The position numbers and the translations under genes were made by a program. The notes under the pieces were generated by a model. The model made no database searches and was not told the origin of the DNA. It saw only the letters and a program-made list of their open reading frames with translations. 64,000 nt of DNA, from positions 1 through 64,000 of the IMG/VR virus record IMGVR_UViG_3300029258_001308; one strand, given 5' to 3'. Shown here piece by piece: positions 43,528 through 60,483 of the stretch (position 1 is the first letter of the stretch; every line of letters begins with the position of its first letter). This stretch comes from a virus.

Positions 43528-44406
43528 TTAGTCGAGGGGTCCCAGGTCCTTCCCCAGGTCCTGGACCTCGTCGAGGGTTGCAGCCACGGTCCCGTGATGT
43601 CGGACAACAGCGGCCGCTGCGAGGTTGGCGAACTTCACGGCCTCGGGTAGAATGACCCCGCGCTCAAGCTGAACAGCCAGAGCAGCGATCACGGTATCTC
43701 CCGCGCCCGTTACGTCGAACACTTCTACCTGATGACCGGGACAGTGGCCACTCGAGCCCTGGTCATACCAGAAGATGCCGTTGGAGCCGTCGGTCACGAT
43801 GGCTCGTGTCTCCCATAACTTGGCCAGAGCCTCGGCGCACTCGTCAGCCCGGGCCATCCGGTAGCGGTGACCGAGCATGACGCGTGCTTCGTGCTTGTTG
43901 GGCTTCAGGTAGGTCAAGCCCTTCAGAGCGGGGGTGATTCGCTTAGGATCAACGATCGTTGGAATCCCTCGGCTCTTTAGGGACTCGATCAGCTCGTCTG
44001 TAACTATCCCGTGCTGGTAGTCCTGAAGGATCACGAACCTTGTATCTTCGATCAGGTCCTCAGGTATCTCAGTGATGCCCGTGTTCTCTCTGGCCCTGTC
44101 GATACGACACACTACTTGACGGTCGGCTACTATCCTCTGCTTGACCGTAGTCTGACCGGGGATTCGAGTGAAGTCGCACTTGAGTAAGGACTCGAGTCGG
44201 AGCCCGTCCTCGTCGAGGTCCCAGGCTCCAAGGAGACGTGACTTGCCTCCGAGAGTCCGGACATTCTGAGCCACGTTGGCCGCACCGCCAGCCATGTACT
44301 CGTGGTGCTTTGGATAGAGGACGGGTACGGGAGCCGTGGGCTCCAGCCTTCCCGCCATGTGGTGAGAGAAGATGTCCAGGATAGCATCGCCGATTGTCAG
44401 GATCAT
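43528..44406 (-). CDS. HldE/RfaE domain I-like heptose-7-phosphate kinase (PfkB family)
   Basis: IGD.ILD, APVPV, GGAANVA.N, TTVKQR, LQDY.HG, VDPK, KPN..EA, VFDVTGAGDTV. Confidence 0.9.
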   Translation of the reverse strand: MILTIGDAILDIFSHHMAGRLEPTAPVPVLYPKHHEYMAGGAANVAQNVRTLGGKSRLLGAWDLDEDGLRLESLLKCDFTRIPGQTTVKQRIVADRQVVCRIDRARENTGITEIPEDLIEDTRFVILQDYQHGIVTDELIESLKSRGIPTIVDPKRITPALKGLTYLKPNKHEARVMLGHRYRMARADECAEALAKLWETRAIVTDGSNGIFWYDQGSSGHCPGHQVEVFDVTGAGDTVIAALAVQLERGVILPEAVKFANLAAAAVVRHHGTVAATLDEVQDLGKDLGPLD

Positions 44407-45359
44407 GAGTACGCCCTCAGCATCTGAATGGCCATAAGGAAAACCTGCTCTGGCTCGATCGCGTTGAGAATCGAGCACCCAGACTGACGACACTTGCCAG
44501 AAATCTCTTTGGGAGGAAGCAGCTGACACGGAGGCTTGCAGCCTTCACGATGCTCGGTGATCGGGAAGATGGGATGCGTCTTTCGATACGGGTGACAGGT
44601 AACCCATCCGTTAGTGGACCCGAATAGAGATAGAGTCGGGACATCCAAGAAAGATGCAAAGTGAAGAAGCCCCGAGTCGGGTGTGATCATGAGCGAGCAG
44701 CGTTGAATAAGAGAGGCCACCTTCGTGAAGGAGAGCCGCATGGCCAACGCTCCGGGGAAGTTCCTTAGACGACGTGGTACATGGTCGAACGAGATGATGT
44801 TGAGGCCGGCCTTGTCGAGAAGCTCGGCCAGCTTCCTCCACTTCTCCGGCGGCCAATTCCTGAGAGGATCGGTTGAGTACGGTTCGAGCCCTACGACGAT
44901 GCCGTGCGTGTTGACCCAGTTACCGTCGAGCCAGCCTTGAGCCCAGTTCTTCTCGGCCTCGGTTACCCGATAGCAGTCGACCACAAGGGGAACGTCGTAG
45001 ATGTCCGAGGCCTCACAGAAACATCTGATCCTTGACTTGTGTCGTTTCTCTCGGAACTCCTTCTCATGTGCCCAGCCGGGACAGTACAGGGAATAGGTGG
45101 CGTCGGCATCATCGGTCTCTTTGAGGTATGGGTATCGCTCGGAGTCGAACGGTCCGTCCTGGGGGCGGCGACGATGGATCGAGGTCTCTGACCAACGATC
45201 TACGTACGGGCAGTGCTCGACGAGTTCTCGGTAGGTCCGGATGCCGACGTACGTGATCTCGACATCAGGCTGTCTAAGCTTCCAGCCCTTGGCCACCGGG
45301 AGTGTGCAGAGAACGTCGCCTAACCCGCCGGCTTCTCTGAGGAGTCGCACCTTGTACAA
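44403..45359 (-). CDS. GT9 (ADP-heptose:LPS heptosyltransferase-like) glycosyltransferase
   Basis: GGLGDVL, RNWP.EKW, ITPDSGLLHFA, TLSLFGST, C-terminal Cys cluster. Confidence 0.9.
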   Translation of the reverse strand: MYKVRLLREAGGLGDVLCTLPVAKGWKLRQPDVEITYVGIRTYRELVEHCPYVDRWSETSIHRRRPQDGPFDSERYPYLKETDDADATYSLYCPGWAHEKEFREKRHKSRIRCFCEASDIYDVPLVVDCYRVTEAEKNWAQGWLDGNWVNTHGIVVGLEPYSTDPLRNWPPEKWRKLAELLDKAGLNIISFDHVPRRLRNFPGALAMRLSFTKVASLIQRCSLMITPDSGLLHFASFLDVPTLSLFGSTNGWVTCHPYRKTHPIFPITEHREGCKPPCQLLPPKEISGKCRQSGCSILNAIEPEQVFLMAIQMLRAYS

Positions 45360-46756
45360 GACTGTTCTCCAGCTCTCTCTGTCTGAGCCTGAGCATGGCG
45401 TGGCTCAGCGTTGATCCAATCGCTCTGGGTGGTCTCGCTAAGAATCCAAGCACATTCCTTGAGCCAGACCTTCTTGAACATACAGAGTGCAGGGTCGGAG
45501 TTGTGGATGTCTCCGGTGTGTTGCTTCGAGACTACTCGACACCCTCCACCACAGTAGTTCCGTGCCCAGCACGATGGACACTTCGTTCGACAGTACCACC
45601 TGTTGTCCTTCCACTCTTCTCGAGCTTGCTCGCTGATTCCATAGGCTAGACTTCCGATGGGGTCCACGCCCTCACGGTGACACGGCAGGATATCACCGCT
45701 AGGATTCACGGCGTAGAATCCCCAGGCAGCTCCACACTCGGAAGGCTGTGGCATTCTCCGAGCCAGCCGTCTCAGCGTGGCTTCGAAGTGGAAGAACCGA
45801 GGATTGTAGCTGGTCTTCCTACGAGACACGAACCACTCGGCGGCCTCGTAGTACTGTCTATTGACAAGCTCTCGATGTTCGTCCGAGGTCCCGAAGATCA
45901 TCTGCTTCTCGCCGATATTGTGGCAGGAGGTCTCGGATAGATTCAGAGGCTCGACGGATACTGATCCCGCCATCCCCTTCCTCACCAACTCGTTGAGGAA
46001 CTCTAACCTCGAGACCAGCTGAACGTCGTCGGCCCCGAATGTTGCTCGAAGCGTGGTCCTCTTAGCCAAGCCAGGATAGTCAAGCATCTTTTCGAGGGCC
46101 TGCATCGTGCTCTCCCAGGAATTGAAGGTGTCTCTCCTGGCCGGGCGATTCTTGTTGTGGATGTCCTCAGGTCCATCTATCGAAATGATCATGGAGAAAT
46201 TCTGCTGACTGAGGAAGTCGAGCTTTTCCTTATCGAGACATGTCCCGTTAGTGGTGATATGAAGATTCAGGTACGACTGCCTCATCTCGGCTAATGATCG
46301 TGCGTACAGGGCTCCTTCCTTGACAAGCTTCCACGACTTGGGAAGAGTGGGCTCCCCACCGAAGAAAGAAATCCCGAAGCGGCCCCTCTTACCAAGCTGA
46401 GGAATACCGTTGAAGTAGTGATCGATCGCCTGTTGAAGAACAGTGGGTGTCATGTACTTGAGTTCCTTCGTCGCGGAGTAGTGACGAACGAAGCAGTAAC
46501 GACATCCGAGATTGCAGTCATGGCAGACGTTCAGACAGAGCTGTACCGGGAACGGCCTGACGAAGTAAGGAAAGTTGGGGGCGTCGAAAGAAGCAGCCGG
46601 CTCGGTATCCCACTCCTCTAATTCGAAGAGCTCCATCGAGTTGGGATCGTAAGCTAACCTCTTCCCATGGGTGCGAAGAACGTGTATCCTAGCGTTCTCG
46701 GCGGGGTATCGTTTGAGGCGGGGGGACTTCTCCACCGCAGGGTTCAAGGACTGCAT
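45320..46756 (-). CDS. Radical SAM/SPASM peptide maturase (CteB/SCIFF-like thioether-forming)
   Basis: CHDCNLGCRYC, FFGGEP, ITTNG, ISIDG, SPASM CGA...V.P.GDILPCH...CPSCWARNYCGGGC...C. Confidence 0.9.
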   Translation of the reverse strand: MQSLNPAVEKSPRLKRYPAENARIHVLRTHGKRLAYDPNSMELFELEEWDTEPAASFDAPNFPYFVRPFPVQLCLNVCHDCNLGCRYCFVRHYSATKELKYMTPTVLQQAIDHYFNGIPQLGKRGRFGISFFGGEPTLPKSWKLVKEGALYARSLAEMRQSYLNLHITTNGTCLDKEKLDFLSQQNFSMIISIDGPEDIHNKNRPARRDTFNSWESTMQALEKMLDYPGLAKRTTLRATFGADDVQLVSRLEFLNELVRKGMAGSVSVEPLNLSETSCHNIGEKQMIFGTSDEHRELVNRQYYEAAEWFVSRRKTSYNPRFFHFEATLRRLARRMPQPSECGAAWGFYAVNPSGDILPCHREGVDPIGSLAYGISEQAREEWKDNRWYCRTKCPSCWARNYCGGGCRVVSKQHTGDIHNSDPALCMFKKVWLKECAWILSETTQSDWINAEPRHAQAQTERAGEQSCTRCDSSEKPAG

Positions 46757-46792
46757 TGTTCTACTCTCCTTTCTTTCTCAACGCCTCTTTAG

Positions 46793-49700
46793 TTAGGGCG
46801 AGGAGATTGAGTCAACCTTGGCATTGTCAGTGTAGCCAGGTCCTTGTACATTCAGACCGAGAGAGTGGCTCGAGTACTCTCCAGCGACGGCCACGCTTCG
46901 AACAGCCGAGTGTCCGTCGAACTCGGCCTTGACCTGAGTTGGTGTGATGATGAGCTTCAGCGTCCCCGATTTTGAGAAGAGATCAGTCGTCCAGCTTCCT
47001 GCCCACACGGTCACGTCGGCGTAACCCGAGACCGAGATTCTAGCACCCGTGCGTCCCTCGAAGTACCATTCAGGTTCCTCTCCTTGCCACCGGCCCTGAA
47101 TCAACGCCCACGCGGTCAAACCCTTCCCGCCTTTGACCGAGCCCCAAGCAATATCTGCACTGTAGATCGGGTCGTAGGGATAACCAGAGTATTGTGCGAT
47201 ATAGCACGGGAGTGTGAAGGTGGCTGATTGATCGGGGTTCCTTCTCTGATCCGCCCAACTAAGGCTGCCACTCGAATTCCCCGCCTTGAGCTTTACCTCC
47301 CCGCCGACGATTTCGAAGACGGGTGTCTCGGCGTCAATCCAGAGTGAGAGGTCACCGCTGAATCCATCGTTCGGCCACGTCCCGTACTCGTAAGGCTCGG
47401 TCGAGACACCCTGAGTCTCAGCTGATCCGGAGGTACAGTCGTGATCACAGGTCGTCTCGCATCCGGTGGACTCGCACTGCGACTCGCAGTACATCTCGCA
47501 GCAGGTCTCTTGACCAATGGCTCCGCCCGGGAGCATGATCATGCAGAAGACCATGCAAGCCTGGAGTGCGCAAGGAGGCCCGCCCTGATCTGCGGCCGCG
47601 GCGCAGAGTAGTTCGCACACGTTGACGCAGGACCCTTCACACGCATACTCGCATGTGAACTCGCAGCCGGTCTGAGTCCATATCTCGCAGACCGACTCGC
47701 ATCCCGTCTGACACTCGGTCTCACAGGCGGTAAGACATCCGGCCCAGACAGGAAGACGAAGCTCGAACTCGATCTCGTCCATCTTGGCGTCAGCGCCTGC
47801 ACCGGGACTGTGCCTCAATCCTACTACGTCGCCTTTCTGACCAGAAAGGAAGTAGTCGGTTAGATCGAGAGAGACCCAGTCTCCACGCTGAAGGTCGAGC
47901 TCGGTTAGATAGGTCTTGAAACTTACTCGTCGACGAAGACGCCTCCGCATAGCCAGCCAGAACGACGCGATGCTAGAGACGTACTGCTTCTGGCCGTAGG
48001 CCCAGAAGTCGTATCGCTCGGCCCTTCTACCATAGGCTGCTTCAGCCGCGGTGTCCCGAACCGTCAGCTCCTTCTCTTCACCACGCTCGTTCCATACTGC
48101 CACGATCTCCGAAAGGACGTAATCGAAGTCGTCCCACGAGAGCTTCACTGAATCAACCGTGATCTCGTCGTCACCCGTGATAGTAGCGGCGACAGACCCA
48201 GCGCCGTTCCTGAGGAAGCCGATAGTAGCGAGACCGTCTTCCCACTTGAACTCGGACCGAGCCTGGAAGCCCATGTCAGCACAGAGGTCCATGAGGTTTC
48301 TTTGACTGCCGAGCGCGAAGCCGAACCGCAGCCAGCCAGTCGCGGACTCAACCGATGAGAATGCAGACGTGTCTATCTCCGAGGCGCCCACTCCTCCCCA
48401 GGTCTCGAGGAACTTCTTGATAACGGCGGCGGGATTCTCGATGACAGTTCCCGACCCGTCTCCCACGCTGTCGAGTCCCTCGATGTCAACCTTGATGTCG
48501 TTGGTGGAAATCTGGTAGCCCGGGATGAACTTCGGTGGATTGTAGAACGTGATGGTGGTACAGTTGTGGCCGAGAATCCCGACGAACTGCGAGTCATTGA
48601 GGTTCACATCGTAGTGTTCAGGGTGGATTACGATGTCGCGGTCTTCCTCGGAATCAGCAACCTGACCGATGAGATACGCGTCTTCCCAGTTCGGATTCGG
48701 GATTCCGGGTACTCCACCGCCAAGGCCGATTCGATTGAGAACCGTCTCGGTGTCGGTCTGGAGCGATAGTAGCTTCTTCCCGTGAACATAGACGTTGTTG
48801 ACCCGGGCCGACGGGTACTCGTTCACTATCCAGGTGTACTGATCGAGCAGCCGATAGCACTCAGAGCCCGCGTCATGAGCCGTAGGAATCCCGACGATCG
48901 AGTACCCATGTCCGTAGGGAAGAGTATAGACATGACCGACACATGTAAAAGTATCGCCTTCGATGAACGTCGGCCCTTCAAGCATGAACTCGGGCATGTA
49001 GTAGATGGTCTTCGAAGTGCCGTCGTATCTCCAGATCTTTCTCCACTGCCACCCCGCTGCAGAGTAATCGGGTCTCGGAGTATTGGAGACCGAGATGGGA
49101 ACTTCTCTGAAGGCGGGATTGATGTACCCGGGGACCCAGGTCTTCACGTAGAACCCGGTGTACGCGTTGTCCCCGTCAGCGGGAAGGTCACCGTCTATGA
49201 AGGCGCCGTTGTACTCCGGGTGAGAGCCCTTGACCGTACCAGTGTAGATCGCTTCGCCTCTAGCTAGAACCGTGAAGGTTCGGCCGTCGATGGTACCTCG
49301 AACTACTTCCTCATTGATCCGAAGAGTAAGCTCGGTCCCGGGGGCCATATCCTCGAAACCTTCGATGAACCAGTTATCGATCTGAGATGCCGATACCGGG
49401 TTCATCAATCGCCCAATCTTACCCATTGTGACGTTCACAGGCTCGACCATCTGCGGCTTCCCAACGCAGATGGGAATCATTCGACCCTCGTGATTCTCGG
49501 CGATGTCGGGGAAGTCATCGATCGTGGCCAGCACTCCTACTGTACGATTGTAGTGCACAGCCTTGGAGACGAGGTCAAGCGTGATCTTCCTATTGTTCTC
49601 GTCCCAGTCGAATGGCCCGGAGACGAACCCGTCGATCAGTGTGACAAGGTCAGTCTCGAGAAGCCCGGCCTCGGTCCAGAACTGATACATCGCGACAGGC

Positions 49701-50707
49701 TTGTCCTGGACTTCGATGTCGTCGAAGTAGGAGAGGAGTGAGCGATCGTGGTCCTGGAGTTGGACCTTCATGTCCGTGACCGGGAGCTGTTGATTTCCAC
49801 GGACAATGGCTCGGTCCATGAGACCCCAGTTCACGACTCGTGCGTCCATTCTTCCAACGGCCGCCTTGACTTGGTAGTCGTCGAACGCCTCTCCTATAGC
49901 GAGGAAGGTCTGGCTGATGTTGCCGTCGAACTCGGTCAACCACGGACCGCCGCCATTGTAGTTGCCGACTGCGAGGTTCTTCGTTCCAGTCTGTCGGATG
50001 TGCGTCCCGAGGGAACCCTGCCAAGTTATTGTCTGAGCTACGCCATCGACGTAGATCACGACCTGTTCGTCGGGGGTGGCCTGAGTGAGGTCAACAACAA
50101 TAGCGATGGAGTGCCACGCGTTCAGGGAAGGAGCGGGGAAAGATGCACCCGCCGTGTGGATAGTTGTGCCGACTTTCGTGTCGAGGTTGAACCGGAGGAC
50201 AGTTGGCGTGAGGAAGAAGAGGAGCCAGCCGGTCCCGTTCCCCATCTCCGCGAAACATCCAGCGTCGTTCTCTCCATCGGATAGCGCCTTGGCGTTGATG
50301 ATGAAGGTGAACTTCTGCTCGTTGTCGAGATCGAACCACGCGTCCGTCTTGTCGGTATGGTAGTTGCTTGTACCTCCCGTGAACTTCAGACTGGTCGTAC
50401 CGCCGAATGGATCAGGTGTCGAGGTGTCCCAGATACCGCTGGCTGACAGAGTTAGATCACGAGCGGCCGTACCTTCCTCGTTGTCGGCTGTGACGCCGGA
50501 ACCTTCGTCGAATTTCCACATAGCCCCATCGAGTGAGGCATAGTCTGGAAGGTCAGCCCAGTCGAAGTTCCACGGTACAGTGAACTCGGAATCCGAGAAC
50601 CACCGTGTCCCCAAGGCACCGCCGGCCATGAGCTTGACAAGATTACGAGGCTTAGCCCCAGACGACAGCGCTTCAGCCTGGGCCCCAGATGAAAGTGTCC
50701 GGACCAC
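46793..50707 (-). CDS. Large tail tip/hub protein with LamG-like domain and internal CxxxC-repeat segment
   Basis: Follows the tape measure and distal tail genes; WKFDEGSG...WHSIAIV...FDGNI LamG-like; ENPA..I, AAYGRR, LQRGD tail-hub motifs. Confidence 0.8.
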   Translation of the reverse strand: MVRTLSSGAQAEALSSGAKPRNLVKLMAGGALGTRWFSDSEFTVPWNFDWADLPDYASLDGAMWKFDEGSGVTADNEEGTAARDLTLSASGIWDTSTPDPFGGTTSLKFTGGTSNYHTDKTDAWFDLDNEQKFTFIINAKALSDGENDAGCFAEMGNGTGWLLFFLTPTVLRFNLDTKVGTTIHTAGASFPAPSLNAWHSIAIVVDLTQATPDEQVVIYVDGVAQTITWQGSLGTHIRQTGTKNLAVGNYNGGGPWLTEFDGNISQTFLAIGEAFDDYQVKAAVGRMDARVVNWGLMDRAIVRGNQQLPVTDMKVQLQDHDRSLLSYFDDIEVQDKPVAMYQFWTEAGLLETDLVTLIDGFVSGPFDWDENNRKITLDLVSKAVHYNRTVGVLATIDDFPDIAENHEGRMIPICVGKPQMVEPVNVTMGKIGRLMNPVSASQIDNWFIEGFEDMAPGTELTLRINEEVVRGTIDGRTFTVLARGEAIYTGTVKGSHPEYNGAFIDGDLPADGDNAYTGFYVKTWVPGYINPAFREVPISVSNTPRPDYSAAGWQWRKIWRYDGTSKTIYYMPEFMLEGPTFIEGDTFTCVGHVYTLPYGHGYSIVGIPTAHDAGSECYRLLDQYTWIVNEYPSARVNNVYVHGKKLLSLQTDTETVLNRIGLGGGVPGIPNPNWEDAYLIGQVADSEEDRDIVIHPEHYDVNLNDSQFVGILGHNCTTITFYNPPKFIPGYQISTNDIKVDIEGLDSVGDGSGTVIENPAAVIKKFLETWGGVGASEIDTSAFSSVESATGWLRFGFALGSQRNLMDLCADMGFQARSEFKWEDGLATIGFLRNGAGSVAATITGDDEITVDSVKLSWDDFDYVLSEIVAVWNERGEEKELTVRDTAAEAAYGRRAERYDFWAYGQKQYVSSIASFWLAMRRRLRRRVSFKTYLTELDLQRGDWVSLDLTDYFLSGQKGDVVGLRHSPGAGADAKMDEIEFELRLPVWAGCLTACETECQTGCESVCEIWTQTGCEFTCEYACEGSCVNVCELLCAAAADQGGPPCALQACMVFCMIMLPGGAIGQETCCEMYCESQCESTGCETTCDHDCTSGSAETQGVSTEPYEYGTWPNDGFSGDLSLWIDAETPVFEIVGGEVKLKAGNSSGSLSWADQRRNPDQSATFTLPCYIAQYSGYPYDPIYSADIAWGSVKGGKGLTAWALIQGRWQGEEPEWYFEGRTGARISVSGYADVTVWAGSWTTDLFSKSGTLKLIITPTQVKAEFDGHSAVRSVAVAGEYSSHSLGLNVQGPGYTDNAKVDSISSP
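47435..47737 (-). repeat. CxxxC (Cys-every-fourth) repeat coding segment, 21 Cys in 101 aa
   Basis: CLTACETECQTGCESVCE...CEFTCEYACEGSCVNVCELLC...CCEMYCESQCESTGCETTCDHDC. Confidence 0.95.
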
Positions 50708-51072
50708 TAGCCCACTACCTCCAGTTGAAAGCGGATAGACCAGCCAGAGTCACGATCCTCGGTGAAGTCGAGAGTCGCATTGACGAACTTCACTGTCCAG
50801 TCAACATCGTTGTGATCTCTGAACGTGAACTCCTCCATGATGCCATCGGACGTATTCTCGAAGAAGTCCTCGATGTCATCCTTCTCGTCGTTGGTCAGAT
50901 AGGTCAGACGGATGTCAAGGTACTCGACCTTGATACCCTTGTCGTAGTTGAACCTGGTCCCGCCTCGAGTCCGGCCGAGCACTTGGAACATGGTATGCCT
51001 GTTCATGTTCCCGAACTCTGGAGAACGAGAGATGTCTTTGTCGACGGCACCTTTGATGAAATGGCATCCCAT
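50707..51072 (-). CDS. Distal tail-like protein
   Basis: Between TMP and tail hub; L..L...E...IEDFF...G....FTF.D pattern. Confidence 0.65.
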   Translation of the reverse strand: MGCHFIKGAVDKDISRSPEFGNMNRHTMFQVLGRTRGGTRFNYDKGIKVEYLDIRLTYLTNDEKDDIEDFFENTSDGIMEEFTFRDHNDVDWTVKFVNATLDFTEDRDSGWSIRFQLEVVG

Positions 51073-51075
51073 CGT

Positions 51076-53598
51076 TTATATCCTCCCCCGCTTCCGAGCC
51101 GTGGCAATCTCGGGGATGATGACTGAACGAGTCAGCTCTCTCCCGACAGGCTGGCCAAGCAGCGTGAGATTGATGTCACCTTCGTAGTGGGTCGTGATGT
51201 GAGTCGGAGAATGATGCTCCGTAGTACCACGACCCGGTCCTGCCTCGGCGCCAGGCTCCCGTGTAGTGGGGCTTCCGGCGATCGAGACGCCAAGTTCGCC
51301 AAGGCCTGCCAGCTCTTCCCTCATCTTCGCAATGAAGGCTCGCATCTGAGCCTCAGCTTCTGGTAGCCCAACAAGCTCGACGTTCCACTGAAGATGTCTC
51401 TCAGCAAACGTCTTCAGATCAGAGAGGTCCTTCCGGATATTCTCGAAGGTATGCTGTGCCTCTTCCAGCAGTCCCTTAGCGCCCTCCTCTTGCTCCTCCC
51501 AGGCGATCTCGCCCAGTTCCTGCAGGTCCTTCATTCCCTCGATGGCTGCCTCTCTGAAGTTCTCGACGATGCCGTACCCAGCCTCGCCTTCTGCTATCTG
51601 GACATCAGCAATGTTGCGATAGAGTTCGGCCGACTCCTGCTGAAGTCGAGCGAATTCATCGTAGTCGGATCGAGCCAGTGCAGCGGCAGCTTCTTGAGCA
51701 CGGGTTCTGGCCAGATAGTACTCAGAGACTGCTCGTGTTCCTTCGTCAAGGCCGCCCAACTGCAGGTCAAGGATGGAGCGATCGATGGAACGAGACCAGT
51801 CGGCGTGTCGTTCCTGGAGGTTCTGAAGTCTGTCCTGATGTCCCTTGACCTCGTCGAACTGTTCTTTCAGCGCGTCCCGAAGATAGCTTATCTGGTCGAT
51901 GTAGTTTTTCTTGAAGTCCTGCGTGGCTCTTTTCCAGTGATCTCTCTTCATGGCAAGAACCGCGGCAGCATGTCGCTTCTGTTCTGCGACGAGATTCGCC
52001 TCAGCGTCAGCTATCTTTCTGAGGTACTCCTTCGCAAGTTCTGCGTTCTTCTTTCGTGAAGCCATTCTCTTGATGAGCTCGATGTTGCCTTCCTTCATGG
52101 CCTTGTTGAGAATCTCTTCCTGACGGAGAGCCTCGGCTCGTGCAGCCGCCTGAATCTTGGCTACGTCCTCGTGAGCCTTCATCTCCTTCGGGGCCTTGGC
52201 TATCAGATCGGCGATCTTTTCGTCAAGCTGGGTGTACTTGGCGATGAGCGACCCGACAGCAAAGCCCGCTGCTCCTACCGCGATTCCCATAGCTGCCCAA
52301 GGATGGGCCTTCGCTAGGTTGACCAGGTGAGGCAGGCCGTCCATGGCTGTGAAGGTCAGGCGGAGCAGCTTGTCGGTGAGCCAGACGACCTTCCCACCGT
52401 ACTTGGCTATGAAGCTCACCCCTGTCGAGAGCGCGAAGGTCACGGCCGCGATGGACAAGGCTGTTGCACCCCAAGCCGCAATAGTCGCAGCGTTCTCCTT
52501 GACCCAGCTCATCCACTCGGCCTTGTTCTTCTCTACCCAGTCGGTGAATTCGATGAGCTTCGGTAGAAGAGCCTCGCCGAGTGTGATCATGACGTCCATG
52601 AAGAACGACTTGATCTTCTTCAGCGCACGGCCAGCGGTCTTGGCCATCTTTTCGTACGCCTCTGCCGATGCACCTTGGCTCTTGACGTTTGCTTCGATGA
52701 TACGACCGAACTCGTCAGCCTGCTTTCCAGCCAGGGATGACACGGCTGTGAACGCACGAACATTCGGGAAGAGGGCAGCCAGCGCTTCAACATTATCACC
52801 AGCTGCCTCTTCTATCTCACGAAGAGCGACGCCAAGACCCTTGGACTTGAGAGCTGTAGCCGAGAGCTCGACGCCGAGTTCTTGGGCAATCTCCTGGGCT
52901 TCTTTCGTCGGAGAGATGAAGGTAACGATGGCCTGCCTGACCGCAGTCACTGCTTCGTCGAATTGGATACCACCCTTGGTCAGGGTAGCAAGCGAGGCCG
53001 TCAGCTCTTCGAGTGGGATGCCGGCGGTAGCAGCGATACCCGTCACCCGACCCAACCCGGAAGCCAGCTGTGGGAAGGTCAGCACGCCCTCTTTGACCGT
53101 GGAGAAGAAGATGTCCGAGACCCGCTCAGCCTGATCAGTACCCATCCCGTAGGCGTTGAGTGTCTGGACGATCCCACGAAGAGACGTGTTCACGTCGGTG
53201 ACGCCCGCAATAGCCGCGCGGTTCGCGACGCTCAGGAGCTCGATGGACTCGGTCGCATCAACACCAGCTGACAAGGTGTTGTAGAGCGCGGTGGTCATCG
53301 TACTATGTGACTCGCCGAATTCGACCGACAGCGATCGGACGCCGTCCTCGAGATTCTGCATATCGACGAGTGTCGTGTCCACCAGTGTAGAGACCTCAGC
53401 CATCCCGGTCTCGAAGGAGGTAGCAAAGTAGAGCGCTGCACCTCCGGCTGCACTTAGGGCTAGGGCCATCTTCTTGGAGGCGCTAGCGACTTTGTCAGCC
53501 GTATTCTCGACGGTCTTGGCCACCTTGTCGAAGTTCTCGTAGAACTCCGAGGTGTCAGCGGTGACCTCGGCGACCAGCTTTTCCACGAACGTTGGCAC
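51076..53598 (-). CDS. Tail tape measure protein (TP901-like core)
   Basis: FETGMAEVSTL, LYNTLSAG, A.AG.TD, LNAYG, V.D.F..TV..G; long helical protein. Confidence 0.9.
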   Translation of the reverse strand: MPTFVEKLVAEVTADTSEFYENFDKVAKTVENTADKVASASKKMALALSAAGGAALYFATSFETGMAEVSTLVDTTLVDMQNLEDGVRSLSVEFGESHSTMTTALYNTLSAGVDATESIELLSVANRAAIAGVTDVNTSLRGIVQTLNAYGMGTDQAERVSDIFFSTVKEGVLTFPQLASGLGRVTGIAATAGIPLEELTASLATLTKGGIQFDEAVTAVRQAIVTFISPTKEAQEIAQELGVELSATALKSKGLGVALREIEEAAGDNVEALAALFPNVRAFTAVSSLAGKQADEFGRIIEANVKSQGASAEAYEKMAKTAGRALKKIKSFFMDVMITLGEALLPKLIEFTDWVEKNKAEWMSWVKENAATIAAWGATALSIAAVTFALSTGVSFIAKYGGKVVWLTDKLLRLTFTAMDGLPHLVNLAKAHPWAAMGIAVGAAGFAVGSLIAKYTQLDEKIADLIAKAPKEMKAHEDVAKIQAAARAEALRQEEILNKAMKEGNIELIKRMASRKKNAELAKEYLRKIADAEANLVAEQKRHAAAVLAMKRDHWKRATQDFKKNYIDQISYLRDALKEQFDEVKGHQDRLQNLQERHADWSRSIDRSILDLQLGGLDEGTRAVSEYYLARTRAQEAAAALARSDYDEFARLQQESAELYRNIADVQIAEGEAGYGIVENFREAAIEGMKDLQELGEIAWEEQEEGAKGLLEEAQHTFENIRKDLSDLKTFAERHLQWNVELVGLPEAEAQMRAFIAKMREELAGLGELGVSIAGSPTTREPGAEAGPGRGTTEHHSPTHITTHYEGDINLTLLGQPVGRELTRSVIIPEIATARKRGRI

Positions 53599-53767
53599 GC
53601 TTCTTCCTCTCCTTATCGTCCTCACGGTTGCGCAGGGAATGGTACGCAACCATGTACTGCTGGCTAGTCAACGGCAGCGAGTAGAATCTCTCGAGGTCTA
53701 TCTTGAACCGATCGCATGTCGCAAGAACAAGATAGAGCGTCGTCCTACCGCTGCCGTCTATTCCCCC
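53555..53767 (-). CDS. gpGT-like extension reached by -1 frameshift at GGGGGAA (53761-53767)
   Basis: The -1 frame is open to TGA at 53555 (…CDRFKIDLERFYSLPLTSQQYMVAYHSLRNRE…) and has no start codon of its own near its beginning. Confidence 0.7.
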   Translation of the reverse strand, partial: GGIDGSGRTTLYLVLATCDRFKIDLERFYSLPLTSQQYMVAYHSLRNREDDKERKKRANVRGKAGRRGHR

Positions 53768-56089: not shown

Positions 56090-56728
56090 CTATACAATCC
56101 CCAGTTGTGGGACGTCGTTGTGGTAGTTGGCGAGGAGACGGTCCACCGCTTTGTTCCCGGTCGTCCCCCCTGTTTCTGTCCCGCCAGATTCCTCGAGAGT
56201 GAACGAGAAGTCGCCAAGCTTCGCCGACTTGATGTCACCCTCGGTCGAGATACCCTCTGTGATGTCGTCCATCTTCTGAGCCGCCAAGATGGCGCAAGCC
56301 TTCGCGATGTTTCGGGGAGTCTTTTTCCATCCCCACTTCCCGGTGATCTGGACGTTCTGATTACCCTTGGGCCAGATCGGAGCATCGTCTCCCCACCGAG
56401 CACTTGCTCGCAGAGAGATGTCGTACTCGAGCGTGACCCTTCGTTCGTAGACCTTGTAGTCGCTAGAGTCTACGTCAGTGGTCGAGCCATCGGCCGGGTC
56501 CACGATCACGATGGATGTGATCTCGAGACACCTCAGCAGAGTGAGCTCCGGGAACAGAATGTCCGAGTGCCCAGTCCCATCGAAGTTGAAGGTCTTGTCG
56601 TCAGGCTCGAAGTGATCATCGCACTCTTCGTCGATCATCTCCATGGCCTCACGGATGGCTTGCTCGAACTCCTTGTTTGTCTCACCAGAGTCGTGAAACT
56701 TTCGTACGTCTGCTATTCGGCAGTACAT
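56090..56728 (-). CDS. Head-tail adaptor (connector) protein
   Basis: MYC...DV, A...ID..C, FDGTG, NVQITGKWGW...P..I..AC. Confidence 0.8.
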   Translation of the reverse strand: MYCRIADVRKFHDSGETNKEFEQAIREAMEMIDEECDDHFEPDDKTFNFDGTGHSDILFPELTLLRCLEITSIVIVDPADGSTTDVDSSDYKVYERRVTLEYDISLRASARWGDDAPIWPKGNQNVQITGKWGWKKTPRNIAKACAILAAQKMDDITEGISTEGDIKSAKLGDFSFTLEESGGTETGGTTGNKAVDRLLANYHNDVPQLGIV

Positions 56729-57765
56729 GGGACGCCCTCCATGATCTCCACTACCGCGTCAGCCACCTGCTCCGGAGTGATGAGCTCGTAGCAGGGGGTG
56801 TCCCGAAAGCACTTCTTCCTGTAGCATCCAAGGCAGTCAGAGTCGGGAACTAGCTTGACGCCTCGGCCATACATATCGATGTCGTCGGCTGGAGTAGAAC
56901 CGAAGATGGTCACGACTCTTCGTCTCAGAGCAATACCCAAGTGCATGCCGAACGAATCCATCGTGACCACGCAAGAGCATGAGGCCACCCAGCCAACGTA
57001 GTCCATGATCGATCGTCTCTGTTCTTGCATCTCCGGCTTGTAACCTCGCTCCTTCAGGAGCTCAGCTAACTTCTCCCAGCCTTTCCACTTCTTGAAGAAT
57101 CGATCTCCGGCCATGTAGTTCAGGCCGACCTTGCCAATTTCCTCCTTGGCCTTGAAGCCCGTGAAGAACGGGTAGTCGTCAGGCTCCTCTACTCCTATCA
57201 TCTTAGCACAGAGCTGCTGGTAGGTCAAGCAGCTCAGTCTCTTGGCTTCGTCGTCGATGCCGAGCTGGAAGGCCTCGCGAGCAGAGTCGGACATGGCGGC
57301 GGTGTTCCCGTACTGATCCATGCCGAACCCGTATCTCTCCTCGGCCTCGACAGCCACGGCTATGGCCGTACTCTCAGGCTCCTTATCCAAGCAGATCACG
57401 GCCTGGAACTTCATGACCATGATCGAGACCTGGCTCTTCCAGTTGTAGGGAATCAGCTTGTCAATCCCCTTGATTCTTCGCAGAATCTGAAACCCTTCGT
57501 CTGAGGTCAGCCATGTGATGTGGCAGTCGCTCCCGTACTTGGCCCTGATCGGACCAAGCAGAGAGGCGGTTCTGACCACATCCCCCATGGCGGCAAGCTT
57601 GATAAGCAGGACTCGAGTTCGAGTCGGCCTATAGTGCTTGCATCCTAGGCATCTCTGCCCGAACTTCTTGTGGGGCCAGCAAGGCTTGAACCCCTTGAAG
57701 TAGCGGCAGTCCGTGAGGATGCCCTCGAACTTGGCAACGTCTGCTAGTCGTCTACCGGTACCCAT
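56713..57765 (-). CDS. GT9 heptosyltransferase-like glycosyltransferase
   Basis: N-terminal Cys cluster, IKLAAMGDVVRT, VVTMDSFGMHLGIAL, IFGST, CLGCY...C...C. Confidence 0.9.
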   Translation of the reverse strand: MGTGRRLADVAKFEGILTDCRYFKGFKPCWPHKKFGQRCLGCKHYRPTRTRVLLIKLAAMGDVVRTASLLGPIRAKYGSDCHITWLTSDEGFQILRRIKGIDKLIPYNWKSQVSIMVMKFQAVICLDKEPESTAIAVAVEAEERYGFGMDQYGNTAAMSDSAREAFQLGIDDEAKRLSCLTYQQLCAKMIGVEEPDDYPFFTGFKAKEEIGKVGLNYMAGDRFFKKWKGWEKLAELLKERGYKPEMQEQRRSIMDYVGWVASCSCVVTMDSFGMHLGIALRRRVVTIFGSTPADDIDMYGRGVKLVPDSDCLGCYRKKCFRDTPCYELITPEQVADAVVEIMEGVPCTAE

Positions 57766-58583
57766 CTGTCTGGATTAGTCTCCATCCAAGCCCGAAGGCG
57801 CCCTTGGAACTTCTCCTCGTCCTGCAGCTGAAGCTGCCGACGCTGCTGGGAGTGCAGAGGATTAGCCGAGTCTCGAGACCCGCCACCCTCGGCCTCCATG
57901 TGCCACGACCTGACCCAAGGAAGATACAGACATTTGAACCCGGCGAAGTAGAGCCGGAGTGAAACGTCTGTCTCCTCCCGATGGCCCAGGTTTGTACACC
58001 ATGTAGCGAACCCGCCCACGTCTTGGAGAGCCTGCTTCCAGTAGATGAACCCGCCGTGCATGTGGCAAACTTCGATGGGCTCATTGTGGTCGATCCAGTG
58101 CTGCTGCATATCGTAGGGCTCGAGGATCATCCCCGTCTCGATCTTCTTCCGGGCAAACCCGTTCTGACTGGGACCCTGATTCAGTATTCTCCCACGATGC
58201 GCGTTGAGGAGACATCCTCCAGCCGCTGCCACCTCTGTCCTGTCCTGATCCACGATGAAGTCGTGCAGAAGCTGGATATAGTCGCGAGGAACAACTATAT
58301 CATCCTCGTGACGGATGCAGAGCTCGGCCTGGGCCGCCTCCATGGACTGCTGATAGGCGAAGGGTATTCCTTCGTTGGTACCACGAACCACGTTCACCCT
58401 GACCCCGTCATCCTCCAACATCCTGATCAGCAGTCTGATATGGTAGTGCGAGAGCACGTCGGGGTCCGAGTCGTCAACGATGACCAGCTCCCAGTCCTTG
58501 TGGGTCTGGAAGACAAGGCTAGCCAGAGCGGCGGACAAGTAGTTCGGCCGATTGCGAGTGATGATATGGAAGGACACTCTCAT
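57744..58583 (-). CDS. GT2 family glycosyltransferase
   Basis: SFHIITRNR, Q...DWELVIVDDS, HEDD, VGGF, REETD. Confidence 0.9.
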   Translation of the reverse strand: MRVSFHIITRNRPNYLSAALASLVFQTHKDWELVIVDDSDPDVLSHYHIRLLIRMLEDDGVRVNVVRGTNEGIPFAYQQSMEAAQAELCIRHEDDIVVPRDYIQLLHDFIVDQDRTEVAAAGGCLLNAHRGRILNQGPSQNGFARKKIETGMILEPYDMQQHWIDHNEPIEVCHMHGGFIYWKQALQDVGGFATWCTNLGHREETDVSLRLYFAGFKCLYLPWVRSWHMEAEGGGSRDSANPLHSQQRRQLQLQDEEKFQGRLRAWMETNPDRWVPVDD

Positions 58584-58585
58584 AG

Positions 58586-59185
58586 CTAGCTCCTTGTCAC
58601 TGCGATTAGGATGAAGTCCTTACCCTTGGTATACTTCACCCTGTTGACCTCGAAGTCGTTGGGAACTCCCTCGAAGAGTCTCTTCACGGACTCCTCTGTT
58701 ACATGCCATTCGTGCGAAGGGTTGTCAACCATGGCCGGATCGTACCCCTCCTTCGCGAATGGCATCGTGATGACAACCTTCTTAGAGGCTACCCGAATAG
58801 CCTCGAAGACAACCTGTCTAGCATCCTCGATCGAGATGTGCTCCAGCATCTCGGCGATGACCACGGTGTCGAACTCCTCGTGATGGAAGGGAAGCCCAAA
58901 GGTGACGTCCATACAGAAGTACTTGCAGTCAGGGTATCTGAGCTTGGCTGCTCTGAGTCTCTCTCGATCAATGTCAACACCGACCCGAACTCCCGCCAAC
59001 CTTCCTAAGATGTAGCCCTCTGCACAGCCGAGATCGAGTATCGACCCCTCTGCTTTTCGGATGATCCAGTTGACCCTTTCCCTCTGGGCCTCTGATATAT
59101 AGCCACCATCATCCGACGGAGGCTGACGAATCTCGTCCAGCCTGGCAACATCAAGGTGGACCCGATAGTCTTCCGCGTCACTCAC
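58586..59185 (-). CDS. Class I SAM-dependent methyltransferase
   Basis: ILDLGCAEG, GVDID, LPF....FDTV...EMLEH. Confidence 0.9.
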   Translation of the reverse strand: MSDAEDYRVHLDVARLDEIRQPPSDDGGYISEAQRERVNWIIRKAEGSILDLGCAEGYILGRLAGVRVGVDIDRERLRAAKLRYPDCKYFCMDVTFGLPFHHEEFDTVVIAEMLEHISIEDARQVVFEAIRVASKKVVITMPFAKEGYDPAMVDNPSHEWHVTEESVKRLFEGVPNDFEVNRVKYTKGKDFILIAVTRS

Positions 59186-60483
59186 TTGTGTCTTCCCTCA
59201 TCTCGCATATAGTCCATCAGCCTCTTGCGGGCCTGGACTAAGGCGGGGACGTCCATCTCGGGAGTCCTAGCCGCGAAGCCTTCGTTCGTATCCTCCCAAC
59301 CCAGAAGCCAGTATCGAGACCAGTCCCTTGAAAAGATCTCGATCTCGAACTCCTCGGGATGATCGTAGATGGGAGAGCCAGGATATGGCTGGAACGTCGA
59401 GAGCGTGCAGCGATCAGGCTGAACCCTCTCGATGAAGTCTACCGTATCCTGGACCGAGCTCGGAGATTCTCCCGGAAGCCCGATGATGAAGTAAGCTTTT
59501 GAGACCATGCCGACTTCCTTAGTCCATGCGATGGCCTGCTCAGCTTGCTCTATCGAGACACCCTTCCGGATATGATTGAGAATCCGCTGCGACCCGGACT
59601 CCACTCCGAACGCCACCTCCACGCAACCCGCATCACGGAGGGTGACGAGATTCGGTCGGGTGGTAAGATCGCATCTCAAATGCGTTCTGAACTTCAGCTC
59701 CGTCTTCCGGAACTGGTCGCAGATCGCCGTCAATCTCTCGGGCTTGAGTCCGATGATCTCGTCGACAAGTCGCACTTCTGTCACACCAAGTATCTTCTTC
59801 ATCAGCCGCAGCTCTTCGTATACCCACTCGGCAGAGTGGAGCCTGACCTTCCCCTCCCAGGTCGCATTGGAACAGAAGGCACAGCGATACGGACAGCCAC
59901 GAGATGTGGAGATACATGAGGCTCGCTCTCCTTCTTCTACGAGTTCATAGGAGACAGCCGAGTCTTCAGCGATGTCCTGCCAAGCGAGGTGCGGAAGTGA
60001 GTCAAGCTCCTTGATGCTCTCCCGCTTCGTGTTGACATAGATCGCTCCCCATCCATCCTTGTAAGCCAAGCCATCGATCACGTCCAATGGCTTCCCGGCT
60101 ACTATCTCGGACAAGGTCTTCTCGCCTTCTCCGAAGACGGCGTAGTCGAAGTCGGTCTTGAGGAGAGTATCCTTCGCAAGCACTGAGGCGTGCGCCCCTC
60201 CTATGATTCGATAAGCCGAGGAACGATGCTCCTTCAGCCAGGTGGCCACTCGGGCCGCGTAACCCATGTCCCCGGTGGTGGCCGAGACACCGAAGTAGTG
60301 AGCCTCGGGAATGACGTCACCCCACTGCTCCTCGGTGTATCTTCCTGACAGATCAACGATGCTGACTTCGCAGTCAACGGTCCGTCTGAGATACGCAGCT
60401 AGAGCGAGAAGACCTAGAGGAGCCTGGAGCCGCTCGTTCCAAAGCATCTTGTTGGGAAGCCTGATGAGAGCTACTTGATTCAT
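59182..60483 (-). CDS. Cobalamin-dependent radical SAM enzyme
   Basis: PLGLLALAAYL, IIGGAHAS, GEGE (B12 domain); TSRGCPYRCAFC; FGVESGS; PYPGS. Confidence 0.92.
   Translation of the reverse strand: MNQVALIRLPNKMLWNERLQAPLGLLALAAYLRRTVDCEVSIVDLSGRYTEEQWGDVIPEAHYFGVSATTGDMGYAARVATWLKEHRSSAYRIIGGAHASVLAKDTLLKTDFDYAVFGEGEKTLSEIVAGKPLDVIDGLAYKDGWGAIYVNTKRESIKELDSLPHLAWQDIAEDSAVSYELVEEGERASCISTSRGCPYRCAFCSNATWEGKVRLHSAEWVYEELRLMKKILGVTEVRLVDEIIGLKPERLTAICDQFRKTELKFRTHLRCDLTTRPNLVTLRDAGCVEVAFGVESGSQRILNHIRKGVSIEQAEQAIAWTKEVGMVSKAYFIIGLPGESPSSVQDTVDFIERVQPDRCTLSTFQPYPGSPIYDHPEEFEIEIFSRDWSRYWLLGWEDTNEGFAARTPEMDVPALVQARKRLMDYMRDEGRHK

Follow-up and report, generated by a model that had tools for sequence, protein, structure and literature searches.

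Thioether formation by radical S-adenosylmethionine (SAM) enzymes is otherwise known from small peptides with antimicrobial or signalling roles and from a single subunit of a bacterial enzyme. The latter, QhpC, is a small subunit with few links, and the enzyme that makes them, QhpD, works with partner maturation proteins. Here, we describe a locus at which this type of chemistry probably contributes to the construction of a virus particle. It is located on a 64,000-nucleotide stretch (the window), which is the first 64 kb of the linear 76.8-kb IMG/VR virus record IMGVR_UViG_3300029258_001308. A gene for a 1304-aa probable tail hub protein (P0001) with a dense internal tract of cysteines (the Cys ladder) is followed by genes for a radical SAM/SPASM enzyme (P0002) and a GT9-family glycosyltransferase. 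We consider it probable that this is a maturation cassette for a virion protein, in which the ladder in the tail hub is the substrate of the enzyme and becomes cross-linked by thioethers, with GT9 as a partner.

Several described systems resemble parts of this locus. QhpD makes Cys-Asp and Cys-Glu thioethers in a protein, freyrasin has six Cys-Asp C-beta links, SCIFF peptides have a Cys-Thr C-gamma link, and NxxcA has a link to the C-beta of Asn (PMC8326336). For PapB, the substrate determines whether C-alpha or C-beta links are made (PMC12373016). The SCIFF system (ScfB; CteB/CteA, Tte1186; TIGR03974; 5WGG) provides the best match to P0002, both by hidden Markov model (HMM) and by structure, and shares with it a full SPASM domain with motifs for two auxiliary clusters. 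The SCIFF substrate is similar to the ladder in its spacing, with Q, K or T after a Cys that recurs every four residues, and the link reported for it joins a Cys to a Thr that follows within a few residues (PMC8326336). An earlier reading of the window from its letters alone (the sequence-only reading) had taken a CteB-made link between Cys32 and Thr37 as the precedent. A Cys-Thr link is indeed reported for SCIFF peptides, but in CteA its acceptor is Thr37 or Thr34, depending on the study (PMC8326336). SCIFF peptides are about 45 aa long and have six Cys, whereas the tract described here resides in a 1304-aa virion protein and comprises from 21 to about 190 Cys across loci. Also unlike the SCIFF maturases, P0002 is phage-encoded, has a GT9 partner and scores below the SCIFF cutoff, and the record contains no neighbouring six-Cys precursor of about 45 aa.

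In the PapB/PapA system (freyrasin), one enzyme makes many tandem thioethers from Cys to acidic side chains (PMC8326336, PMC12373016), as we propose for P0002. It differs in having C-x3-D units and six non-overlapping rings, whereas the ladder has the putative acceptor directly after each Cys, so that links from i to i+5 would form overlapping rings. QhpD is the closest in logic, as its thioethers are made in a protein subunit (QhpC) that stays in a larger assembly and Glu is one of the acceptors (PMC8326336), but it involves no periodic ladder and no viral context. The CXXX-repeat system (TIGR04115) shares with the ladder a Cys period of 4, and its enzyme matches P0002 in the radical SAM core only. 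In NxxcB/NxxcA, Cys is joined to a side-chain carbon three residues away, a register that is disfavoured for the ladder (see below). The phage system would be of an already known kind (radical SAM thioether maturation), but its setting and scale are unprecedented.

P0002 (478 aa; window positions 45320..46756, on the minus strand, as are all window features given below) was identified by Pfam, NCBIfam and structure matches. It exceeds the cutoffs of the radical SAM superfamily model (PF04055, 53.8 bits vs 29.5) and of the SPASM model (TIGR04085, 46.1 bits vs 27). The CxxxCxxC motif (C81/C85/C88) is invariant in an alignment of 30 homologs, and so are the SPASM cysteines (C341, C359, C393, C396, C402, C406 and C425), which align with those of CteB. 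The nearest solved structure is CteB (5WGG; E 8e-38, residues 71-440). The sequence-only reading had called P0002 a maturase of the CteB/SCIFF type. This stands as far as similarity is concerned, with the best matches being to maturases of the SCIFF/CteB (TIGR03974; E 2.5e-55), PapB (NF047865; E 9e-50), nif11 (E 4.5e-47) and QhpD (TIGR03906; E 9e-39) types, all of them near full length. It does not stand as an assignment to any of these families, because the scores are far below the curated cutoffs (188.2 bits vs 425 for SCIFF, 169.8 vs 340 for PapB, 161 vs 519 for nif11-type and 133.3 vs 453 for QhpD). The same holds for an orphan enzyme family related to ScfB (E 2e-49, 169 vs 855), for anSME (E 1e-21, 77 vs 349) and for the CXXX-repeat maturase, which is matched only in the radical SAM core (E 6e-12, 45.7 vs 350). 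Since all curated equivalog cutoffs are missed by a wide margin, P0002 appears, by sequence comparison, to belong to the thioether-forming SPASM branch but to a separate clade of it. In the phage collection, a search with the enzyme returned only relatives at 30% identity or less; a closer relative, the database protein P0006, is 70% identical.

P0002 has no Pfam match to PqqD or to an RRE, the recognition element of the maturases for peptides that are made on ribosomes and modified after translation (RiPPs), with E values of up to 0.1 considered. An N-terminal stretch (residues 22-51) can be aligned with the start of SCIFF-type maturases encoded in metagenome-assembled genomes (MAGs) of Firmicutes (hhalign probability 72%, E 3e-5); the templates were picked by a shared motif, which favours a match, and this 30-residue likeness is suggestive only. 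Almost all enzymes of the phage clade have Cys278 (window positions 45923-45925), whereas CteB has a different residue at the aligned position. Ligation of an additional cluster or participation in catalysis are possible roles of this Cys. Several enzyme homologs are 700-1490 aa long and have Hint, intein-splicing or LAGLIDADG Pfam domains (P0087, P0094, P0108, L040:7971-12434, L026:7752-10394, L041:7959-10511 and L021:6711-9146; P and L numbers designate proteins and loci of this study). Because of these domains, the long homologs probably contain inteins.

The ladder covers residues 991-1091 of P0001 (47435..47737) and consists of 21 Cys, mostly in C-[E/Q]-x-x units arranged in three blocks. 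The other Cys are at positions 151, 414, 589, 617, 716, 809 and 1168, so that 21 of 28 Cys are packed into 101 of 1304 residues (hypergeometric P = 4.5e-19). The spacing is exactly 4 for 14 units of the island, and in nine of these 14 the Cys is followed by Glu. The coordinates and counts of the sequence-only reading all hold: an open reading frame (ORF) at 46793-50707, 21 Cys in 101 aa at 47435-47737, and an enzyme gene starting 36 nt downstream. This 36-nt spacer, between the hub stop codon and the enzyme start codon (46757..46792), contains an AAGGAG ribosome-binding site and no terminator-like site. An NCBIfam scan of the ladders matched no SCIFF or CXXX precursor model, and the window tract has no NCBIfam hit with an E value of 1 or less. 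AlphaFold2 modelled the ladder together with the C-terminal domain at a predicted local distance difference test (pLDDT) score of 38, which is too low to use, and the helices drawn in this model are no evidence. In the window, the ladder has no DNA-level tandem repeat. The ladder of L009 (L009:7701-7860) is a near-perfect 24-bp DNA tandem repeat with 6.7 copies and 94% matches, which suggests recent expansion and easy length variation.

The usual arrangement in this enzyme superfamily is a separate small precursor, and it might be argued that such a peptide is the true substrate, with the tail ladder being coincidental. With a CheckV completeness of 71%, about 29% of the genome is missing, which leaves room for such a gene. 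The sequence-only reading had named a separate precursor as a finding that would overturn its proposal, but a search of every frame of the whole 76.8-kb record revealed no second Cys ladder and no plausible small Cys-rich ORF, neither near the enzyme nor elsewhere. Across the related loci, no Cys-rich partner recurs other than the ladder, which is part of large ORFs. We thus find a separate precursor hardly credible.

The carrier of the ladder, P0001 (1304 aa; 46793..50707), was characterized by its ORF, its gene position and Foldseek searches. Its gene directly follows those for the tape measure protein and a small tail protein. The AlphaFold2 model of the hub module has a pLDDT of 53 and was taken for its family signal in Foldseek rather than for its geometry; all matches (TM score about 0.2, E 6e-9 to 1e-4) are tail-tip hubs, namely those of T5 (pb3), lambda (gpJ), JBD30, Chi, T1 and DT57C and the hub of a gene transfer agent (GTA). 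Because of these matches and the gene position, we tentatively assign P0001, on the basis of a predicted structure, to the lambda gpJ/T5 pb3-type tail hubs. The match to the TipJ model (NF040662) is marginal (E 0.014, 13.9 vs cutoff 140). P0001 resembles lambda gpJ and T5 pb3 in its position after the tape measure protein, in the Foldseek matches of its hub module and in having a putative stalk between hub and distal domain. We know of no hub protein described as having a Cys ladder or being served by a modifying enzyme of its own.

The conserved hub module (residues 288-990; 47738..49846) is 25-35% identical to large hub ORFs in L004, L009, L010, L014, L027 and L007. It ends in RLPxWxG, and the ladder begins immediately thereafter in P0001 and in every close homolog. 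The ladder hence occupies the position of the central fibre in gpJ/pb3-type hubs. A profile of the hub module matches 2439 representative clusters at E up to 0.001 (among 1.84 billion representatives) and has no match among PDB sequences. About 70 of the top 150 representative hub clusters have a ladder at the same site, while more distant relatives are Cys-poor. Ladder length in hub homologs ranges from 5 Cys (L107 group) through more than 70 (L004, L014) to 166 (P0132). When the phage collection was searched with the hub protein, no relative was found, and searches of IMG/VR with single proteins retrieved the identical contig only. BLASTP alignments to the hub homologs span residues 1-39 and 288-990 only; the N-terminal insertion outside these alignments (residues ~40-287; 49847..50590) is about 250 aa without counterpart in the aligned homologs and has no Pfam match.

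The ladder is followed by a C-terminal domain of about 210 aa (46796..47434), which is presumed to be the distal or receptor-binding part. It is predicted to be mostly beta (pLDDT below 40), has no Pfam match and retrieved only unnamed clusters from the ESM Atlas. This domain is missing from many homologs, which end in the ladder (L009, L010, L027, L007). A ladder at the extreme C-terminus is reminiscent of leader-core precursors, and P0002 shares a short N-terminal stretch with SCIFF-type maturases. One might therefore see the ladder as a RiPP core that is cut off and released, with the hub module serving as a giant leader or carrier. This is very improbable. The cassette contains no protease or exporter, the ladder of the window is internal, 100-190 Cys on proteins of 650-2000 aa is far beyond RiPP sizes, and the carriers are tail-anchoring domains (gpJ-like hubs and P2 gpI-like proteins).

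The association between ladder and enzyme was analyzed from both sides. The alignment of enzyme homologs retrieved 263 viral stretches, of which 80 were kept. The close enzyme clade comprises 30 distinct loci, 26 of them with at least 3 kb of upstream sequence. A C-[E/Q/T]-x-x ladder ORF is found upstream on the same strand in 23 of these 26 (24 by a looser criterion, with L018 and L026 as the exceptions). The carriers are not only hubs. In L006 and L019, the ladder is on a protein with an N-terminal Tail_P2_I domain (P2 gpI-type baseplate protein). Other, unknown carriers are almost entirely ladder (131 Cys in 648 aa in L003; 151 Cys in L023; 192 Cys in L117, from a MAG labelled Acidiferrales). 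Relatives also occur on the MAG contigs L118, L120 and L125, two of which are binned with Planctomycetes. Carrier-specific motifs precede the ladder (RLPxWxG on hubs, KSARVD on another group), and no universal leader-like motif was found ahead of the tract on the different carriers. Since ladders adjoin the enzyme on unrelated carriers, the ladder, as far as gene neighbourhoods indicate, follows the enzyme and not the carrier protein.

From the hub side, scans of viral, metagenome and MAG sequences yielded at least 19 distinct ladder-bearing hub loci with enough DNA, and all have the enzyme, 0-6.6 kb downstream of the hub. Five distinct hub loci without a ladder (L198, L199, L200, L201/L202 and L091) have neither the enzyme nor a GT9 gene within 4-10 kb. 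The sequence-only reading had proposed that its pairing of ladder and enzyme would fail if one occurred without the other; among the hubs, the covariation pattern is the opposite of this. L111 was considered as a case of a ladder without enzyme but was rejected, because its contig, by comparison with the syntenic loci L107 and L108, stops short of where the enzyme gene would be.

A distant enzyme clade (L043-L081, 24-28% identity) has the reverse gene order. There, a Cys-rich ORF of 200-720 aa with mostly C-Q-x-x units starts at or overlaps the stop codon of the enzyme gene (e.g., L065:9094-10038, L070:2055-4223, L047:3266-4390). The number of radical SAM genes is two to four in several members of this group.

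The residue pairing was approached by repeat statistics on 1171 CxxxC units from 32 ORFs. The position after Cys (+1) is occupied by E (46%), Q (27%) or T (14%), while Asp is rare. Cys and +1 are the only constrained positions of the unit, with +2 and +3 merely being small residues. The E/Q/T residue keeps to +1 of the preceding Cys at spacings of 3, 4, 5 and 6. At spacing 5, it is found at +1 of the preceding Cys in 86% and at -3 of the next Cys in 12%. When a Cys is skipped (spacings 8 and 9), E/Q/T is retained at both +1 and +5 of the preceding Cys. Among 84 ladder runs, E/Q/T follows the last Cys in 88% but the first Cys in only 49% (Fisher 5e-8), and it is found three residues before the first Cys in 30%. 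This run-end asymmetry and the spacing behaviour of E/Q/T match the prediction for a link from each Cys (i) to the residue after the next Cys (i+5), so that this register is favoured by the statistics. The spacings and the run ends both speak against two alternatives, an ExxC register (NxxC-like) and a pairing of adjacent Cys and Glu. The sequence-only reading had proposed a ladder of Cys(i)-Glu(i+5) links; its register is supported, but the acceptor would be E, Q or T rather than Glu alone.

Two constrained positions and the end asymmetry fit a donor-acceptor pair and not a Cys-only modification. This bears on the question of whether the enzyme modifies the ladder by a chemistry other than C-beta/C-gamma thioether formation. 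Options are C-alpha thioethers (sactionines), conversion of Cys to formylglycine as by anSME, epimerisation, and carbon-carbon or inter-chain links among the three fibre chains. With all curated equivalog cutoffs missed, the reaction is not fixed by homology. In addition, PapB makes either C-alpha or C-beta links according to its substrate (PMC12373016), anSME is in the same SPASM group, and the phage clade has the nearly invariant C278, with no Cys there in CteB. However, the four best-matching families form side-chain thioethers and have far better E-values than anSME (1e-21), and the constrained E/Q/T residues at +1 have the distribution expected of acceptors. Another chemistry is thus unlikely, and we retain side-chain thioethers as the preferred assignment.

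The third gene of the cassette codes for a GT9-family glycosyltransferase (318 aa; 44403..45359; PF01075, 62.2 bits vs cutoff 22) and is located just downstream of the enzyme gene. It is a conserved component that the sequence-only reading had missed. Of the 27 loci that could be evaluated, 19 have a GT9 homolog no more than 3 kb downstream of the enzyme, and these include hub-type as well as gpI-type contexts. P0114 (780 aa) is a natural fusion of the enzyme with GT9, as the alignment of its residues 451-765 spans all 318 aa of GT9 (E 2e-19). Because of the conserved adjacency and this fusion, we regard ladder protein, radical SAM enzyme and GT9, in that order, as the conserved unit, as judged from gene order. 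L026, which has no ladder upstream of the enzyme, keeps its GT9 gene.

GT9 misses every cutoff of the equivalog models for lipopolysaccharide (LPS) heptosyltransferases and is only a distant relative of these. The GT9-like autotransporter heptosyltransferases TibC and AAH heptosylate repeat-rich adhesive proteins; compared with them, it should be kept in mind that the phage GT9 is only distantly related to the LPS heptosyltransferases. Candidate targets are Ser/Thr of the ladder, the Thr/Pro-rich linkers after the ladder (L104 and L107 group), or Cys. In L104:1859-4846 (P0004), L107:9417-12404 and L098:997-4050, a short ladder is followed by long mucin-like tracts rich in Thr, Ser and Pro. Such tracts in some hub homologs are possible GT9 targets. 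The last gene of the operon codes for a PfkB-family sugar kinase (43528..44529; PF00294, 1.8e-33) that resembles domain I of RfaE (RfaE/HldE), the heptose-7-phosphate kinase, but scores below the cutoff (TIGR02198, 210 bits vs 345). Apart from the self match, no kinase homolog was found in the related loci.

The end of the operon is shared by the radical SAM enzyme, GT9 and the heptose-type kinase. It may thus be asked if these proteins act on a sugar, glycan or other target, with the ladder being a metal-binding or disulfide motif. Sugars are the substrates of certain SPASM or twitch enzymes (BtrN), and an Fe-S cluster is bound by tail-tip proteins of the lambda gpL type. The window has a second cassette with three GT9 genes, a GT2, a B12-binding radical SAM enzyme and a methyltransferase (see below). 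Furthermore, phage GT-B enzymes can put unusual sugars on DNA (bioRxiv 10.1101/2023.12.21.572611), which makes the GT9 step the least certain part of our proposal. Against a sugar-directed role of P0002, the enzyme tracks the ladder across unrelated carriers and is absent beside ladder-less hub homologs. The ladder is kept in six of the eight loci that lack a nearby GT9, the kinase is restricted to the window phage among the related loci, and the best HMM matches are to peptide and protein maturases. No metal site known to us has a strict period of 4 in which E/Q/T follows each Cys. We regard this explanation as distinctly unlikely.

If the ladder is the substrate, we propose the following sequence of events. 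The enzyme would bind the nascent or unfolded ladder and take a side-chain hydrogen from an acceptor Glu, Gln or Thr. The acceptor would then be coupled to the upstream Cys while this is held on an auxiliary cluster, as proposed for CteB. The bond formed would be a thioether of the ranthipeptide or QhpD type, connecting the Cys sulfur to a side-chain carbon of the acceptor. By moving along the tract, the enzyme would generate overlapping six-residue macrocycles, and the product may be a redox-insensitive, protease-resistant rod that joins the hub to the distal domain. GT9 would then probably add a sugar, plausibly heptose, to the same protein, and in the window phage the RfaE-like kinase may help to supply the sugar donor. 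The HK97 capsid, with its isopeptide chainmail, is a case of covalent virion reinforcement that is autocatalytic. Both systems would stabilise the virus particle by covalent cross-links, but here a separate radical enzyme is proposed to act, and on the tail. In its full form, the proposal is that the central or side tail fibres of many uncultured phages consist in part of an enzyme-made polymer, for which a genetically encoded C-[E/Q/T]-x-x tract, freely variable in length (from 5 up to about 190 units), is converted into a continuous thioether ladder by one enzyme and is subsequently glycosylated by GT9. We put this forward tentatively, at slightly less than an even chance.

Several points weigh against the cassette as proposed. 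The anatomy of the locus, the family affinities, the recurrence of the three genes and the residue statistics are observed; from homology, gene neighbourhood and these statistics, we infer the role of the ladder as substrate, the thioether bonds, the residue pairing and the GT9 target. The curated cutoffs for SCIFF, PapB and QhpD are missed so widely that the reaction of P0002 could differ, a full RiPP recognition element was not detected in P0002, and no precedent was established for Gln as a thioether acceptor. In L018 and L026, the enzyme scores as a close homolog (416 and 477 bits with the clade model), yet about 8 kb of upstream sequence contains no ladder; these enzymes may have other substrates or substrates encoded at another site. 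Because the loci are related by descent, the covariation counts do not represent independent events. GT9 is missing near eight of the 27 enzyme loci, and the large glycosylation cassette in the head module makes a sugar-directed role conceivable for both the enzyme and GT9.

The sequence-only reading had known of no earlier description of such a system, and this was borne out by full-text searches of papers that can be read without subscription: neither radical-SAM-modified phage tail proteins nor the ladder were found to be described. Newly described are the fusion of the ladder into a gpJ-type hub, the single enzyme from a SCIFF-like clade, the conserved GT9 and the residue-level evidence for the register. 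The post-translational chemistry of phage particles is almost unexplored. If our proposal is correct, RiPP chemistry serves as construction material for a virus particle, and radical SAM thioether formation would be a structural tool in the host-recognition organelles of a large group of environmental phages. The ladders would include the longest tandem array of enzymatic cross-links known to us in any protein. For enzymology, this would provide an enzyme able to process tens to hundreds of sites while its protein substrate is folded or folding, a natural series of substrates with graded length and a natural enzyme-glycosyltransferase fusion, each of them attractive for peptide and protein stapling. 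The cassette also accounts for a class of extremely Cys-rich "hypothetical" phage proteins.

The record sequence is also found in seawater and sediment metagenome runs, none of those listed being an RNA run, and its source is probably an uncultured siphovirus-type phage of marine or sediment origin. The late operon is on the minus strand and runs from about 63.7 kb down to 43.5 kb. It begins with a virion protein, the glycosylation cassette, a head-tail adaptor, Hc1, Neck1 and the tape measure protein, and ends with the 121-aa protein, P0001, the radical SAM enzyme, GT9 and the sugar kinase. The tail length tape measure protein (857 aa; 51076..53649) matches phrog_991 (1.1e-58) and 18 further tape-measure PHROGs, and its gene sets the tail-module context. 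The small tail protein that precedes the hub gene (121 aa; 50707..51072) matches no Pfam or PHROG family, but its position is kept in many related loci. Its homologs, as detected by phmmer, are encoded directly upstream of the hub ORF in L004, L008, L009, L011, L014, L025, L083, L085, L097, L101, L104, L106, L125 and others.

The second modification cassette is part of the head module (56713-62651) and was recognized by Pfam domains. Its products are a double GT9 of 722 aa, a radical SAM enzyme that binds B12 (59182-60543), a SAM methyltransferase, a GT2 and a further GT9. This cassette suggests that glycosylation or methylation by the phage extends to several parts of the virion or to its own DNA.

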